Origin: Octopus vulgaris
Lineage: Eukaryota
NCBI GenBank assembly: GCA_951406725.2
Contig: OX597826.1
Coordinates: forward strand, 52,886,001-52,950,000
Reading direction: 5' to 3'
Length of the DNA: 64,000 bases
Both the position numbers and the translations under genes were made by a program. This document shows positions 1,947-62,064 of this stretch, in pieces. The notes under the pieces were generated by a model. The model searched no databases and was not told where the DNA came from. It saw only the letters and a list, made by a program, of their open reading frames with translations. Within the stretch, counting starts at the first letter, position 1; every line of letters starts with the position of its first letter.

Positions 1947-2308
1947 CTAGCCAATGCAAAATGCGGACGCATTCTCACAATATTCTTAACAATGAAACCT
2001 GGAAAAGTAGAGGACATGAAAAAACTCATTAAAATTAGTACTTAAAATATTACTGCTAAAAGTTATATTAAATTTTTTTTAATAAATTCATTTAGTACAA
2101 AAAACAAAATTAAAATAAAAAAAAGGTAAAATGAAATTAATTGAATTTTTTAAAAATATGAGAGAGTACCCAGGAGATACTTTTTAATTTTAATTTTAGC
2201 AGCAATATTTTAAGCTCTAATTCTAATGAGTTTTTTCTTGTCTTCTACTTTTCCAGGTTTAATTATTAAGAATATTGTTAGTGTGCAACCGCATTTTTCA
2301 TTGGCTAG
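1947..2308. mobile_element. MITE-like element with diverged ~125-bp inverted arms
   Basis: CTAGCCAATGCAAAATGCGG... (1947-~2075) is the imperfect reverse complement of ...CCGCATTTTTCATTGGCTAG (~2180-2308). Confidence 0.75.
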
Positions 2309-2397
2309 CTTATATATGCAGGACTGATAAGTGCTAACACACACGAAACTCTCGCACTTTGAGCCACTCTGTTGCTTCTGATAAATATTAATATATA

Positions 2398-2591
2398 CAG
2401 GAGGTTAACTATATGGTCGGTCACAGAGTGACCAATGGTTTCGCATCCATAAAGCGCTTAGCCTTATAGACGACACGTCAACCCTCAAATTTTGCGACCG
2501 TCTGAGTCTGACGTGTTGTCTATAAGGCTAAGCGCTTAATGGATGCGAAACCATTGGTCATTCTATGACCAGCCTTATAGTTAACCTCCTG
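2398..2591. mobile_element. Tc1/mariner-type MITE (hairpin element)
   Basis: TA|CAGGAGGTTAACTATA...TATAGTTAACCTCCTG|TA; arms ~80 bp, TA target duplication, CAG termini. Confidence 0.8.
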
Positions 2592-5500
2592 TAAATACAT
2601 TACTGCTCTAACTTCTAGAGTATGCTTATATGTATGCTTCATAACACAAAGTTTGATCAGTATAGAGTGGTAATAAGAACAAAGCGATGACACTGGAAAA
2701 TACAATAGCGCAGAAATTCTAAGTCACAAATAGTAAAATAAAGTAAGAGCAGCGAGCCTTAAACTAATCGTCAATAAAAATCGCGAAGTAGTGGATGATT
2801 TTAAAAGACATTACAATTAATTTTTTTTTCCTTACACAGTAGAATAATTTTTATCTTTTTACGATATTTTCCTTTGAGACCAAATTGTTTCTCTTGAACA
2901 TATTGAGTAAATCTGGCATTATTGCTGTCTCTCTGGGTCTTTGTCATTGAAAATAAAAATCAATTGCAAAATATCTTTAAATAACATTTAGTGATGTATT
3001 TATTCGGTGGATAAAATGTCCGGAAGTAAATTTATCGAAAATGCAATTTTTAACATGACGATAAATGTACCAACAATGTGTTCGCCAATGATGTAAATAT
3101 CTTAAGATGAAATTTATCAGGCAATGAAATTATAAGTTATTTATTTACCAAGCGATGGAATTAGTTGATATTGTACACTTTACAGTCCAAAATGTCATTT
3201 CTTTTATGACTTGGGTGCTTTTTGATGGCAATTTACCTTTTATTTCTAGGCTCTTGTGATCCTGTTAATTCTCACCACCTCTGCAAAATATTCTGTGCGA
3301 TGTTCTTGTAATTCTATCGATGCACTGCTCTCAGTCACCATCAGTATGATCGATATCGTTAGTTGTAATGTTGAATGTCATACAAATAACCAGTAATCCG
3401 AGACGTTCTCGGATTGAAGCAATTTTTTATTTGCTTACATAATTAACTCCTTTGAAAGAAGCCGATATATAGAAAGAAGCCGATATATGTTCAGTTTAAC
3501 TGCAATACAAGCCAACGATTATATACGAAGTCGCCAGACCTGCTAGAAATAGTAAACAATTTTTTCGTGTTCAAAACCTCTCTTTGTTAAGTTAAGAAAC
3601 TTGGGACAATGAAGTGTTTGATAAATATAAAGATGGAATGGTCACGGCTGAAATGCGTTGGATCATAACACTTCTTAATCAATAATTAATCCGAATCTAA
3701 ACATCAACAACAACAATAGCAGTAGCAATACTAATTGAGAATTAAAATTTTGACATGTTATTGAAATGTAGCCCACTAGAAAAAGTGTGAATGCCACATG
3801 ATCGAATGGTTACGAGGCTCGTTCGGTTTGCTAATACGAAATCCCATATCCGACCCTTATTTTATGGAATGTTTGGTAAATAACTTCCATTATTATCTCG
3901 CCCTGTTTGTGAAATTTGGTGGACGGAAATTGTGTGAAAACCCGTCAGATGGGATGTACAAGGAATTCGAAAATACTTGTGTTACGTTGATTTTTACCTG
4001 AGGAATATATTACTGGTTCACATGTTTATGAAGTAATTCAGTTGATGGGAAAACTGAAACTTTATCACCAAAACTAACTCAGATCCAATTAATTTCTTTA
4101 CGAGAAAATGCGGTGTCAAAACTGTCACATTCATTAAATATTTCAATATGAGTTTTGAGAATAAACAATCATTTCAGATTCTATTGTTGTATATAATGTA
4201 GTGGTGATTCCATTAACTGGAGCTTGGTGAGTGTGACGAATTTAACGTCTAGATCTTAATACTTCTATGCAGACTCAAACCGTTTTATCCTAAATACAAA
4301 ACAACAGATTAATTTTAGTGCTTCATTTACCCATGGAATGTTTACCTTTTACCAAAGCAAGGTGTTAATGTATTCATACATTTAAATTAAGAAAGAGGAC
4401 TGAGTTCTGGATATTCGATTTTATTGATTAAACGAAAAAGACAGACACAAACCATTCTGATTTTCCTTGTATTCCTATTGCCAGGCCTTAACGGGAACTA
4501 TTGGGCTGTCTCCTGAAATTTCTGAGAAGAGTGCCTTGTCTTCCACTTGCCAAATAATATTTCCTAGAATGGTTTGTTTGTGAAAGATTCTAGTAATAGT
4601 ATTGGAGCTAGATTGAAGACCTTTATGCTCACATGTTCTATATATCCTAGAACAAGTTTGCATATTCTAGAACAGCTTACACATACACGATCATATTACA
4701 TACACTTCACTACTAATGTTGAAATTTATAAAGTATATTACAGAACATCTATTTATGTAGTAAACAGATAACAAATTATATAACGCTACACATTATACAC
4801 ACAAACCCTCCCTCGCACGCTCACATATACTCACAGACTCACGCAAACACTTATTCATGCATACATACATTTGCATATGTATACATTTGTGTGTGTTTGT
4901 GCGTGTATGTTTGTGTATGTGCGTTTGTGTGACTCTGTGTGTTTGCGTGTGTATGTGTGTGTGTGTGTAGGCGCGCAATGTCCTGAGTGTGAATATATTT
5001 GTACATGTTGTGTGTATGTCTGTACGTGTAAATAAACTTGCACTCATGGGTGTCCTGTGGTTACGTAGCCCAGTTCACCTCTGATAATAGGTACAAACAA
5101 AAATCCATAACCTGGATATAAGAACTGTAAATTTCTCATTAGTTCTTCTTAGATGTTATATTTTTCCTTAAATTTTGAATAGAGATTCACAACTACTGGG
5201 CAACTGATTTCTATATTGAAGCAATGCTTGAATTTTAGTCCCTGTCACATACTACTTTACTTCATTTGCTGCGCTTACACCAGGTTGCAGTTTTTATTGA
5301 AATATTCCACTAGCATTCTTCATGTTTAAAGTTGTGGATACTTTCTGTTTCTGATATGCCTTTAGCATGGCCGTCAGTGCAAGTCACCTCCTGTAGACTG
5401 TTACAGAAGGTAACATCACTGGTTGATTATCTATACCATTTGTGTTATAAATAAATCGATATATTTTACCAATAAGCTGAAAAGTTATGAGAAATAAAAC

Positions 5501-5917
5501 CGTTACAATTGCTCCCCAATATAAATAAACGAGCAATAAAAGAACGTTGTCTCAGGGACAATGTCCTGCCTCATGGAAAAGTAGTATTATGTATGCATGT
5601 ATGAATGTATGTATGCATGTATGTATGCATGCATGCATGTGTATATGTATAATAGATTAGCCCATATGCATATTAGCTAAACTTTCTTAGAGGATGGACA
5701 CGCCTACATCTTCGAATATATTATACACCTTCCAAAAATTAAGTAACGTGGATCTATACGAACATATTTTAAAATTTGCACCATTTACTAAAATGTGTTA
5801 AGCAACACATCCTTTTGTTTGTTCATCCGTTTGTTTGAATACATATGCATGTGTGTATGTGTATGTGTATATTATATATATATACGCACACACACACACA
5901 CGCACGCACACACACTA

Positions 5918-7275: not shown

Positions 7276-7597
7276 TTGCAGCGTGGAAGGTGTTTGTAAG
7301 CCATTTAAGAAACACACAAAAACCGTTACATTCACTTCAACATTTAAATTTAATTTGCCAAAATATTTTCGTCGCTTTGAGACCGCGACCTGTTCACTGA
7401 CAAAAATATCGTGCTAACAGGTCGCGGTCTCAAAGTGACGAAAATATTTTGACAAATTAAATTTAAATGTTGAAGTGAATCTAACGGTTTTTGTGTGTTT
7501 CTTAAATGGCTTATAAACACCTTCAACGCTGCAACTGTTTTCGTTCCAGCACACGATCTCAGATCAAGTCACTTGCTATGCAAGTACATCTCTGTAA
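7276..7597. mobile_element. foldback Penelope-type terminal repeat with inverted ~120-bp arms (7276-7394 / 7416-7534)
   Basis: Arms are near-perfect reverse complements; the same family recurs at ~23680-23910 and ~36645-36880. Confidence 0.75.
7354..7404 (-). ncRNA. minimal type-I hammerhead-like motif, G3-C8 core variant
   Basis: Minus strand TTTGTCA-GTGAACA-g-GTCGC ggtctcaaa GCGAC-GAAA-ATAT-TT-TGGCAAA; 7-bp stem I (one G-U), 5-bp stem II, palindromic loop III. Confidence 0.6.
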
Positions 7598-30145: not shown

Positions 30146-30399
30146 GACTGCTCTCATGCCAGAGCACCGACATAGACAGAGAAATATAAGCTTTTACATT
30201 TCAATATTCTTATTTTGCGAAACTAAGTCTTATGTTAGGTAATTATGTCTGAAGACTCGATTGCGCTGAGACGTCTCAGCGCAATCGAGTCTTCAGACAT
30301 AATTACCTAACATAAGACTTAGTTTCGCAAAATAATAATATTTAAATGTAAAAGCTTATATTTCTCTGTCTATGTCGGTGCTCTGGCATGAGAGCAGTC
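30146..30399. repeat. 254-bp spacerless palindrome
   Basis: Centre ...GCGCTGAGAC|GTCTCAGCGC... at 30272/30273; about two mismatches between arms. Confidence 0.95.
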
Positions 30400-32481: not shown

Positions 32482-33697
32482 TACGCACGCGGCTAAGGCG
32501 GTGGTCAACGGCTAATCGGGTCGTTGTCGTCAGCGGTATCGAGCACGAGTGCGTGTGCCGGTCGGCGCACGAACGCGACGATCTCTGCCCAGTGCTGCGA
32601 AGTGAAGACACGTTGGACAAAGCGCGGGCAAACGGTAGTAGTAACTCGGACTCTCTCTGAGAAGTATTAAGTAAACTTGGAAGCAAGCGATTAGCAGTAG
32701 CGTTGTTCGTTTTTTCTGTCATCCCTTCTCTAATTCTTTTTTCTCCCCTTCACCGCTTTCTATGTCTCTCTCTCTCTCTCTCTCTCGTTGCTCACACGTG
32801 AACTTTGTCCATCTTTCCCTTCCACACGTGATCATCTTTCTTTTTTTTTCAGTCTGTCGCGCAGTCCAGACGCATTCTTATCTATTTCCTCTCCTATCTT
32901 TTCTCAAACAATCTTCTACCAGCGTTCGCTAGCTTACCTCATCTTGGCCTAACGGCCCTCCCTATCTGTCTTCATTTCGGTTGGATTGTTGTATGTCCTG
33001 TTTTTGTTACCAACTTTGACCCTCCTCAAATCCCAAATTGTATTTTGGTTCGCGAGAACAACTGCCTTTGAAGTCTTATATTGTCGTTCATTGCTCGAAA
33101 TAAGGAGTAGAAGGACAGCCGACAACTGATGAAGGGTCGTTTTTTATGATACCTTGTTTCACATTTGTTTCTCTCGTTCTTTGCGTACCCAACTTTATTT
33201 TCGTATTTCATGTTGTTTACGTTTTATGACGTCCTGTACCCATATATGCGTACCTATATAAATATATATGTATGTATGTACATATATGTATGTATATATT
33301 TATATATCTATATATTATTTATATTATATATATGGAAATTAACAGTTATTGCCAAGCTAATATGGCAGTCCATAAATATAAGACTTAAGCTGCCGTTGAT
33401 TAGCTCCAAGAGGCCATCGCCTCTAGCTAGCTATAAGACACACGAACCTGTGTCCATTATAACCTTCGAATGTCTGTGTGTATATACATATATGTATATA
33501 TATATACATATACATATATATATACATGCACATATATACATATATATATATATATATATAAGAGTGTATAAAATATTTTTATACACAGGGAGTAGGCCAT
33601 TGATAATGTTCCTTAAAACTATGTTATGTCTTATGACTTTTATTTATGCTTGCTAACCACTGGTAATAAATTATTTTAATTTATTTCCCTCATATTT

Positions 33698-33745
<48 letters not shown>

Positions 33746-33887
33746 CATACACACACACCTATATATACATACATATGCAAATATATAATAGAAATATTCA
33801 AATTTCTAAGTCTCTCTAAAAGACTCTCTATAACCATTATAACTTTCGAACAGTGGAGGTCAGCCGATTCTCCTTGCTGGTCAGACA

Positions 33888-33930
33888 TCTGCAGACATGT
33901 TTCAGGGTATTTGCCCTTTATCAATGCAGA
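33888..33930 (-). ncRNA. minimal type-I hammerhead ribozyme candidate, U3-A8 variant, GUC cleavage triplet
   Basis: Minus strand TCTGCA-TTGATAA-AGGG caaata CCCT-GAAA-CATG-TC-TGCAGA; all helices Watson-Crick; palindromic loop III. Confidence 0.75.
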
Positions 33931-33979
33931 TTAGCCTTCGAACAGACAGTCGGCCGCGACGCCTGCTGTGTCTGGCTAC

Positions 33980-34022
33980 TCTCCATTGATAAATGGCAAA
34001 TACCCTGAAACATGTCTGCAGA
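33980..34022 (+). ncRNA. second copy of the U3-A8 hammerhead, one mismatch each in stems I and II
   Basis: TCTCCA-TTGATAA-ATGG caaata CCCT-GAAA-CATG-TC-TGCAGA. Confidence 0.55.
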
Positions 34023-34163
34023 TGTCTGACCAGCAAGGAGAAGCGGCTGACCTCCCTGTTCGAAAGTTATAATGGTTATAGAGAGTCTTTTAGAGAGACT
34101 TAGAAATTTTAATATTTCTATTATATATATGCATATGTATGTATATATAGGTGTGTGTGTATG

Positions 34164-34232
<69 letters not shown>

Positions 34233-34657
34233 TCGCAAATATGAGGGAAATAAATTAAAATAATTTATTACCAGTGGTTAGCAAGCATAAATAAAAGTCA
34301 TAAGACATAACATAGTTTTAAGGAACATTGTCAATGGCCTACTCCCTGTGTATAAAAATATTTTATACACTCTTATATATATATATATGTATATATGTGC
34401 ATGTATATATATATGTATATGTATATATATACATATATGTATATACACACAGACATTCACATACACGCATGCACACATTTAGAAAACACGCACACACGCA
34501 CACATAGATACATAGTAACACGCACACATGCGCGCATATACACTATCCATACATACGCATATATACACGTTGTAGTTCATATACAGACACAAGCATGAAC
34601 GTACGACTGACGTAAATACATGCACACATGCGCACACTTGTGGGTACACACACATAA

Positions 34658-36968: not shown

Positions 36969-37207
36969 TAATTTTGTTTTCGTAATGTTCCAGTTGATTT
37001 AGTGTTTGGAGTGTTCTTGACGTTTATTGCCCGTTTTGTTGTTTATTCCACCCCCTTTTTTGTTTGGTACCTATTACAACTGCCGAGGTCGCTATTTTTG
37101 TTGTTATGATCCCTATTGTTTTTATTTTTGTTATTGTTCCTATACCCTGAGTTGTTTTGTTCTGTTTATTCCGTGCTTGTGCTCGTTGCACTATTGTATT
37201 TGTGTAT

Positions 37208-37883
37208 GTGGTACTCCATGTTGTTGGATGTGGCGTACGATACTTCCACTGTGTGCTTCCTGAAGATACGATGATATTTATGGAAGCACCTATTTTAATG
37301 CAGCAAGCAATTCCTTACCCATTTTCGATGATATTTGCAATCCGAAAATTGGGTTGTACCATAAAACCTCGGAATTTTTGTACTTTTTGTTTGGTTCTTT
37401 TAACATTTTATGTGTTGTTATTTTATGCGTCATTGTTGCTATTATTGTTATTCTTTTTGGTTTGGGTTTTTTCCCTACTTTTCCCTTCTCTCTTGGGTTT
37501 GTGTATCTCTATTATGTGTTTGTTATTGCTTTTCATATTACGTGGTACTCCATGTTCTTGGATGTGGCGTACGATACTTCCACTGTGTGCTTCCTGAAGA
37601 TACGATGATATTTATGGAAGCACCTATTTTAATGCAGCAAGCAATTCCTTACCCATTTTCGATGATATTTGCAATCCGAAAATTGGATTGTACCATAAAA
37701 CCTCGGAATTTTTGTACTTTTTGTTTGGTTCTTTTAACATATTTTATGTGTTGTTGTTATTTTATGCGTCATTGTTGCTATTATTGTTATTCTTTTTGGT
37801 TTTGGTTTTTTCCCTACTTTTCCCTTCTCTCTTGGGTTTGTGTATCTCTATTATGGGTTTGTTATTGCTTTTCATATTACGTG
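37208..37883. repeat. 334-bp tandem duplication
   Basis: GTGGTACTCCATGTT.TTGGATGTGGCGTACG at 37208 and 37542; copies nearly identical. Confidence 0.95.
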
Positions 37884-61069: not shown

Positions 61070-61935
61070 GCAGATCCTTATTTATTGATGAATGGTGGGT
61101 GTTTCGATATTTAGGTTTGGTCTATATTTGTTGAATTGTTTTCCTTGTTTATTCTCTGTTGTTCCCGCAGTTTGCAATGTGACTACTGGAAGCTTCTTCG
61201 TGCTTTCGTCTCGAATCTGTTGGTGGTGTAACGTCATTCTTTTGCATAATGAAGCACTCGTCTTTACTATGTAGTTTTGTTGGCATCCACCGCATGTCAT
61301 TGCGCAGATTGAGTTGTTGGAGTTACAGATTAAGTTTACTTTTGCTTTAAAGGTTTGTCCTTCCTTTAGGTATAAGCAGGTGGCACAATTTGTTCTTCCA
61401 CATGTTGTCACAGCTGGGTGAGGGATTTGTTTCTGTGTTTTCGTTCCAATAATGATTCGGTTGAGTGTTTTGGGCAGCCTTTTGTTTTTGATGATTTGTT
61501 ATGTTTCCAGAATTTTTTCATTTTTTCATCTTCAAGTAGAATGGGGAGGTTTTTGTGGATGAGGTCAAATATTTCAATGTTTCTGGGGTTGAAGGTTGAC
61601 ACATGGTAAAATATTTTTCTTTGTTTTGATTTTCGTTTGCCTTAGTTACTGAATATCAATGTTTTGCTCTGTCCATTCCATTGGTGATTAGGCCTAGTGG
61701 GAATGCTCTTTGGGTGGGAATGCTCTTTGGATGTGAATGTTTTTAAGTTTTTTTCTGTCTTTGTTCACGCTTAAATGGGTGTGACACTATTGCGCAAATT
61801 CGTTTTGCTAGGTTAAAGGGAATATTCAGTTTGGTGTGTTTTGGGTGGCATGATGTGAGTAGAAGGTCTTGTTTGGAGTCCATGGGTTTATAGAATATGT
61901 CTGCTTCTATTTTCCTATCTCTGTTGGTCATTGAA
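61070..61935 (-). pseudogene. Penelope-like (Neptune-type) RT thumb / Cys linker / GIY-YIG fragment
   Basis: DIFYKPMDSKQDLLLTSCHPKHTKLNIPFNLAKRI; TFNP; CGRTNCATC...CNSNN...CGGCQQNY...KRMTLH; a short inverted related piece at ~61975-62046. Confidence 0.88.
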
Positions 61936-62064
61936 ATATCCAGAAAAATCCATATCGGTATCCATGAAAATCAAAACGAAAATCAAAACAAAGAATTATA
62001 TTTTACCATATGTGTCAACTTTCGTCGCCAGAAACGCTGAAATATTAGTGTGTGCGTGCGCGTG

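Follow-up and report, generated by a model that had tools for sequence, protein, structure and literature searches.

An aged retrozyme-type hammerhead foldback in Octopus vulgaris, probably inserted by a Penelope element and enlarged by a later local inverted duplication

The window analyzed here is a stretch of 64,000 nucleotides from Octopus vulgaris (assembly GCA_951406725.2, contig OX597826.1, positions 52,886,001 to 52,950,000, forward strand), and all coordinates below refer to it. In the window sequence as assembled, segments 33468-33936 and 33974-34458 are mutual reverse complements separated by 37 nt, and they carry hammerhead motifs on opposite strands, as reported in a first-pass annotation of the same DNA. 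The spacer of approximately 50 bp described there agrees with the 49 nt lying between the two hammerheads, but this sequence is no spacer and forms the 5' strand of a long stem I that belongs to the element itself. Only ~130 bp of each arm belongs to the element, the remaining ~340 bp being host flank, and a third piece of the same element (33335-33470, minus strand) was found just beyond the originally annotated interval of 33468..34458. The arms differ by 9 substitutions across 456 aligned bases, with gaps chiefly in (TA)n tracts; the substitutions are divided between the outer (5/369) and inner (4/87) aligned bases (P = 0.07 for a difference in divergence). The parts of the locus are as follows, with element positions counted from the cleavage nucleotide (0) and the terms original and secondary reflecting the history favored below.

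33322..33334, plus strand: left copy of the target-site duplication, 13 bp, sequence TATTATATATATG, low complexity
33335..33470, minus strand: fragment F, the original left arm, element positions +44 to +181
33463..33470, plus strand: first copy of CCTTCGAA, the 8-bp direct repeat on either side of the secondary insert
33471..33934, minus strand: 464-bp inverted copy of 33976-34455 (right arm and host flank)
33888..33930, minus strand: type I hammerhead motif, U3-A8, fully paired, predicted cut 33894/33893
33935..33942, plus strand: second copy of CCTTCGAA, where the right arm starts at element position -81 (the rod's 5' foot)
33935..34118, plus strand: E2, the original right arm, -81 to about +233 (site B)
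33935..34067, plus strand: extended stem I, an imperfect ~135-nt rod tipped by the hammerhead, folding z score -5.2
33980..34022, plus strand: type I hammerhead motif disrupted by two substitutions, predicted cut 34016/34017
34119..34131, plus strand: right copy of the target-site duplication, 13 bp
34132..34458, plus strand: host flank, source of the outer left arm, containing microsatellites and part of an unrelated repeat family

The segment at 33471-33934 creates the 1-kb foldback and supplies the second hammerhead. It has microhomologies of 3 nt and 2 nt at its ends and the 8-bp direct repeat on either side, the last 3 nt of the first repeat copy (GAA) being the microhomology to 34456-34458. 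Apart from this insert, the locus is a one-ribozyme foldback (33335-34118) framed by the 13-bp duplication, itself of low complexity. F has its 3' end at site A of the family described below and its 5' end where the family's junctions are concentrated, while E2 has lost ~138 nt internally, between 34075 and 34086, a deletion peculiar to this locus. No coding open reading frame (ORF) was found at the locus, in agreement with the first description; the sole frame of at least 120 amino acids overlapping the left arm is a low-complexity translation of (TA)n microsatellite. Within the host flank, positions 34232-34378 hold a fragment from a second family of repeats (299 candidates), other copies of which are often partly inverted and sit in (TA)n, so that it is perhaps another nonautonomous family of Penelope type; no clear hammerhead was seen among the four copies viewed.

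In the minus-strand motif, stem I (TCTGCA/TGCAGA), the TTGATAA core, stem II (AGGG/CCCT), GAAA, the CATG loop and the GTC site are all present and everything is paired, so that its earlier description as perfectly paired holds. The plus-strand motif has one mismatch in each of stems I and II and, when folded alone, is predicted to lose the hammerhead fold. Searches of Rfam with the window at the gathering score and with the core at an E value of ≤10 returned no match.

The 25-nt ribozyme core gave 251 exact matches across the 2.8-Gb genome assembly and its reversed control gave none; thus, the motif is not a chance occurrence. A motif located 93 to 117 nt downstream of the cut had at least 804 exact matches, again with none for the reversed control. 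These matches belong to an ORF-less unit of ~361 nt that is circularly permuted, its 3' part running back into its own 5' part. Many loci show the tandem seam at which site B runs on into the start of the unit, and 19 of 90 foldback arms were longer than one unit. One locus (L063) contains two complete hammerheads 365 nt apart, as in the tandem copies of retrozymes; such tandems were rare and long arrays of the unit absent among the fetched loci, and the window's own locus is not tandem. The unit folds more stably than shuffled sequences (z = -8.5), with the hammerhead at the tip of the ~135-nt rod. Median arm divergence from near copies was 2.9% (139 arms), and the arms of two foldbacks were identical over at least 200 nt, so some insertions are recent.

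To examine ribozyme conservation, 50 copies were aligned, comprising the window copy, 45 full-rod copies (from 68 ribozyme-bearing arms), and four from other locus sets. U3 and A8 were retained in 48 of the 50, and the other core positions in 46 to 50, in accordance with the type I hammerhead core (N3 U4 G5 A6 N7 N8 A9; G12 A13 A14 A15.1; U16.1 H17) plus a 3-8 pair. Helices I to III were paired in 91 to 97% of cells across the aligned copies, and a palindromic loop III, either CATG or CTAG, was present in 44 of 50. Double-sided swaps between subfamilies were identified in helix I (UA/CG and GC/AU) and helix II (AU/GC). Such changes occupied 52 cells compared with 17.5 in shuffled alignments, but eight pairs compared with 8.4, which is no excess, and the structure scored was drawn from the same sequences. 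As helix III is only 2 bp, a dimer form would be needed. Loop 2 reads CAAAUA in about half of the copies, and its last A (49/50) together with an internal-loop U (50/50) and C (44/50) match, by sequence, the residues forming the tertiary-contact pair of loop 2 and internal loop 1 described for the Schistosoma hammerhead (PMC2632901).

With its short ORF-less unit (within about 170 to 400 nt) and one type I hammerhead in each, the family is, judged by sequence, an abundant noncoding hammerhead repeat of the retrozyme type, and the earlier proposal of a noncoding retroelement with a conserved hammerhead is upheld. Contigs of sequencing runs guessed to be RNA contained pieces of the family, many continuing into other sequence, although RNA ends and circles are not visible in contigs. 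Among 23 listed rows of sequencing runs, no RNA source was named and all were small shares. A scan for sigma-70 promoters, irrelevant for an animal genome, had no match. Among the octopus, Penelope and ribozyme publications screened, none describes the family in its title or the start of its abstract; the supplements of PMC4209133, PMC7229834 and PMC8557442 may list the 361-nt family.

For the statistics on insertions, the first 100 listed of the 804 downstream-motif matches (contig 1 and part of contig 2) served as an unbiased sample, yielding 85 loci; an initial locus set, picked with the junction inside the query, was excluded from breakpoint statistics. Forty-five of the 85 loci are foldbacks, every one of them tail-out (3' ends facing outward), and the other 40 have no inversion. 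The 3' ends fall at two AT-rich sites ~55 nt apart, designated A (about +178) and B (about +233). Both ends could be classed in 31 foldbacks, 14 of the 45 having one unclassed end and being left out of the count, and of these 25 paired A with B, five B with B and one A with A (P = 3 × 10^-4 relative to independent choice). Simple repeats adjoin 66 of 103 loci (the 85-locus sample plus the core-motif set). End strings of 9 to 15 bp were shared in 12 of 22 nonmicrosatellite foldbacks compared with 22 of 462 mismatched pairs, and duplications of at least 9 bp were found in only two of 15 noninverted copies.

Elements of the endonuclease-bearing (EN+) Penelope-like group are described as having the same layout: an inverted 5'-truncated copy, a tail at one end, duplications of 8 to 10 bp, and (TA)n targets (PMC3846280, PMC8557442). 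The octopus copies share with them the head-to-head inverted 5'-truncated copy, the one-sided tail with two 3' ends, and the short duplication in AT-rich or microsatellite DNA, the last being weak for noninverted copies. Biochemically, a Penelope protein is reported to nick and extend both strands and to use uncut RNA, with two internal start sites defining the tail (PMC11167929). Taken together, these sequence patterns suggest that the family copies were likely inserted by Penelope-type retrotransposon machinery.

The arms themselves carry further information on this process. In 13 to 15 of the 25 A/B foldbacks, each arm has sequence absent from the other and the arms are therefore non-nested, while the two 5' ends of a foldback were not correlated (P = 0.24) and no clear difference in length was found between A arms and B arms (P = 0.11). 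A single strand copying itself cannot yield non-nested arms, so that self-priming, as proposed in PMC3846280, is disfavored, and non-nested arms with uncorrelated 5' ends would favor two independently primed cDNAs. At 35 of 55 junctions, the BLAST ends of the arms overlap by at least 2 nt. Junction ends were concentrated at +36 to +56, where 25 of 90 were located compared with 6.9 in simulations that presume a constant stopping rate, and none of 1,000 simulations matched this in any 21-nt window; microhomology blurs the BLAST ends from which these positions are taken. The palindrome TTCGAA lies within this interval, which is the rod's 3' foot (the foot of extended stem I) and the complement of its 5' foot. 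Over all motif-bearing arms, foldback or not, the peak was weak (15 compared with 8.9, P = 0.04; 9/150 after scan correction), and clustering at the 5' foot (7 compared with 3.7, P = 0.07) is not claimed.

With regard to the window locus, the most probable reading is that it is an aged retrozyme-type copy, likely inserted by a Penelope element, whose 1-kb symmetry and second ribozyme likely stem from a later local inverted duplication. The template would have been uncut multimeric or circular RNA of the unit, which is circularly permuted, ORF-less and carries a conserved type I hammerhead. A Penelope enzyme may have made two nicks in an AT-rich target, one per strand and spaced about 13 bp, and cDNA synthesis would then have been primed from each target end, the usual start sites being A (+178) for one and B (+233) for the other. 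The cDNAs often end at the rod foot, possibly by stopping there, and appear to be joined by short microhomology into a tail-out inverted pair. At the window locus, F and E2 would thus have been joined at CCTTCGAA with a single ribozyme, after which E2 presumably lost ~138 nt and mutated. A DNA-level template switch, the preferred cause of the inverted copy, would then have copied 464 bp of E2 and its flank, inverted, into the old junction, leaving through the GAA microhomology, returning through CC, and recopying 8 bp.

Several observations bear on this order of events. When the insert is removed, F meets E2 in a recurrent junction type (8 of 43 pattern matches, of which three were read and confirmed), and one locus (L185) is a near-exact analogue of the reconstructed F/E2 junction. 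The ~138-nt deletion junction occurs only in the two arms of this locus and in no other copy. The arms also share three private substitutions, the one covered by F being absent from it, compared with five that are arm specific, and the timing of the secondary duplication rests on these few differences and on the contrast in divergence between inner and outer arm given above; across 38 foldbacks of the family, the corresponding totals were 52 shared and 321 arm specific. The shared unique deletion and private substitutions indicate that the second hammerhead is a local copy, and the sense/antisense layout is thus likely a by-product. Transduction of 3' sequence from another source copy was ruled out, as the deletion junction is unique.

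The strongest competitor, which we nevertheless regard as unlikely, is a single complex insertion: synthesis of the left cDNA would have halted at the rod foot, switched to host DNA (or a read-through RNA) lying 340 bp farther right, and continued back along the new right arm. It would account for F ending exactly at the family hot spot, a second target duplication could explain the 8-bp repeat, and both template jumping and the capture of host DNA are reported for Penelope elements (PMC3846280). However, the deletion and the three substitutions would be needed at birth in one template, which could not be that of F, and the deletion is absent from every other copy. Furthermore, the arms differ from each other by about 2%, whereas E2 departs from the nearest family majority at 9 of 174 sites, and no comparable extension into the flank was matched in 55 other foldback junctions (two short matches). 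The two-step history is retained. The window locus belongs to a known class and is unremarkable within it, most likely being a dead copy; its F and E2 foldback is normal and its added inverted copy atypical.

To identify elements that could mobilize the unit, the genome was searched for GIY-YIG loci, which are abundant (148 matches among 150 scored; 6136 candidates). A young Penelope-like family (L172-L178 and L183) encodes a 781-amino-acid reverse transcriptase (RT) and GIY-YIG ORF, has terminal repeats >99% identical, and has (TA)n at its 3' end. In its representative L175, ORF1 and ORF2 lie at 818-2254 and 2176-4518 and the repeats at 289-797 and 5002-5510. The family carries a U3-A8 hammerhead-like motif with the same TTGATAA...GAAACATGT core as the 361-nt unit. 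Beyond this core, the unit shared no sequence with autonomous elements (20 endonuclease loci and 12 longer stretches of the 6136 candidates), and the family is therefore a candidate mobilizer only. It has a second, upstream ORF of 333 to 479 amino acids, the 479-amino-acid version being without a Pfam match. Only one ORF is described for canonical EN+ elements. The CxxxCxxC linker of the young family appears to resemble a motif of the Neptune clade as given in PMC8557442.

Unit copies were also noted within about 1.5 kb of Penelope ORF remnants at six loci (L118, L170, L027, L138, L014 and L108), perhaps through shared (TA)n targeting, and a decayed Penelope-like RT/endonuclease remnant was detected by tblastn in the window at 61109-61946 (minus strand). 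The one strong match of the unit to an autonomous Penelope, at L170, proved to be a neighboring separate insertion, and L094, where two copies lie 3.2 kb apart, was rejected as a terminal repeat (pLTR)-ORF-pLTR arrangement because no Penelope-like ORF is present between the copies.

The insertion layout, identical to that of autonomous elements, raises the question of whether the unit is the pLTR stump of a further autonomous Penelope element rather than a free retrozyme, particularly as only part of the genome's Penelope families was covered. This is improbable, since arms extending beyond the unit start always enter the unit's own 3' end, for up to 2.3 units. An RT and GIY-YIG ORF between pLTRs, as in autonomous elements, was found neither at the locus nor fused to the unit; the fetched loci have no ORF remnant fused to the 5' end, and Penelope matches lie alongside, are separated by simple repeats, or serve as targets. 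Moreover, a helix I of 6 bp, a helix II of 4 bp, and the conserved loop residues fit a canonical retrozyme and not the minimal hammerheads described for Penelope-like elements (PLEs) in PMC4209133.

The first-pass annotation had tied the inversion point to the ribozyme, as the end of the cleaved RNA template, and had suggested that the antisense copy in a transcript could sequester the sense ribozyme, in effect a built-in switch. The arms at the window locus do end 6 nt past stem I, and in a transcript spanning the whole locus the antisense arm is predicted to anneal to the sense ribozyme, burying it in a long hairpin; the predicted pairing agrees with the proposal, with no sign of function or selection. 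Nevertheless, the junction lies at -42/-81 rather than at 0, and the plus-strand ribozyme is decayed. Across the family, two of 90 foldback junction ends fall no farther than about 5 nt from the cut (-5 to +6), compared with 3.1 simulated, and the hammerhead region as a whole (-45 to +15) is not enriched (12 of 90 compared with 14.4). Of 65 motif-bearing arms reaching the cut site, 63 read through it. Random breakpoints had been named as what would refute this origin; in the 45 foldbacks, where junction positions vary widely, breakpoints were not at the GUC site, yet neither were they random, being clustered 36 to 56 nt downstream. Given the rod-foot peak without cut-site enrichment, breakpoints relate to the ribozyme's extended stem rather than to a cleaved RNA end, and the cut-end origin with its switch is very improbable. 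An assembly artefact (foldback chimera) is the least credible explanation, for although the flank extension is unique among examined loci, the arms differ at nine positions and in microsatellite lengths, both junctions have microhomology and the 8-bp repeat, and a 13-bp duplication is present at the outer ends.

A more specific mechanism can be put forward tentatively, and we hold it to be less likely than its failure. After a staggered cut, a dimeric RT-endonuclease would use each of the two target ends to start cDNA synthesis, with uncut or circular retrozyme RNA as the template and a different fixed start site for either strand; extended stem I would act both as a stop and as the annealing point joining the cDNAs, and the helper would be the young two-ORF U3-A8 Penelope family. 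If this is true, inverted pLTRs and the one-sided tail would be explained by twin priming and not by self-priming, and the family would constitute a natural library of footprints of Penelope integration.

Other inverted and tandem structures are present in the window. A spacerless near-perfect palindrome of 254 bp (98%) lies at 30146-30399. Two inverted duplications are very young (14400-15020/15706-16323, 98.9%, and 53332-53653/53930-54251, 99.7%), the former composed of ~150-bp tandem units, and older ones were noted at 7276-7534, 1947-2308 and 2392-2597. A tandem duplication with a period of 334 to 339 bp and 95 to 98% identity is located at 37205-37883, in which no hammerhead motif was found. 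The region at 32500-32700 is GC and CpG rich and gives the impression of a promoter or first exon; the hammerhead element may sit within the first intron.

Much of what is seen here has precedents, as U3-A8 cores, opposite-strand hammerhead pairs, and inverted pLTR-plus-tail insertions are already published. In the account of Schistosoma mansoni PLEs, U3-A8 covariation is reported for about 1,300 matches, and opposite-strand hammerhead pairs lie 100 to 700 bp apart (PMC4209133). Those hammerheads are described as minimal with a long helix II, whereas the octopus motif has canonical helix sizes, and its loop 2 CAAAUA is that of the full-length Schistosoma hammerhead (PMC2632901). Metazoan non-LTR retrozymes have been defined and linked to Penelope elements (PMC7229834; bioRxiv 10.64898/2026.07.22.740005). 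As presented in these sources, they resemble the octopus family in having an ORF-less unit of about the same length (~360 nt here, 350 to 390 bp in mussel), a canonical type I hammerhead whose helix III is short and palindromic, tandem or more-than-unit copies, a strong unit fold, and a proposed dependence on Penelope. In contrast to them, the octopus family consists mostly of dispersed subunit pieces and inverted pairs and has a U3-A8 core.

The pLTR-plus-tail insertions of EN+ Penelope elements, as set out in PMC3846280, PMC8557442 and PMC11167929, share with the octopus copies the tail-out inverted pair, duplications of ~8 to 10 bp, AT-rich or (TA)n targets, an optional one-end tail from two RT start sites, and copies reading through the ribozyme. 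The octopus family differs in lacking an ORF, in its tail of ~55 nt compared with 30 to 40 nt, and in junctions that cluster at the rod foot with non-nested arms, against the self-priming of Arkhipova 2013 (PMC3846280); the window locus further adds an inverted copy of host flank. The locus itself is of little import, being likely a decayed insertion with a local rearrangement. The family is more useful, as its hundreds of short copies provide countable evidence in the form of A/B pairing, non-nested arms, and stops at an RNA stem. The origin of Penelope inverted repeats and one-sided tails is stated to be open in PMC8557442 and PMC11167929, and the pairing of A and B ends with non-nested arms modestly informs the integration mechanism, for which the unit offers a small substrate in the existing in vitro Penelope assay.
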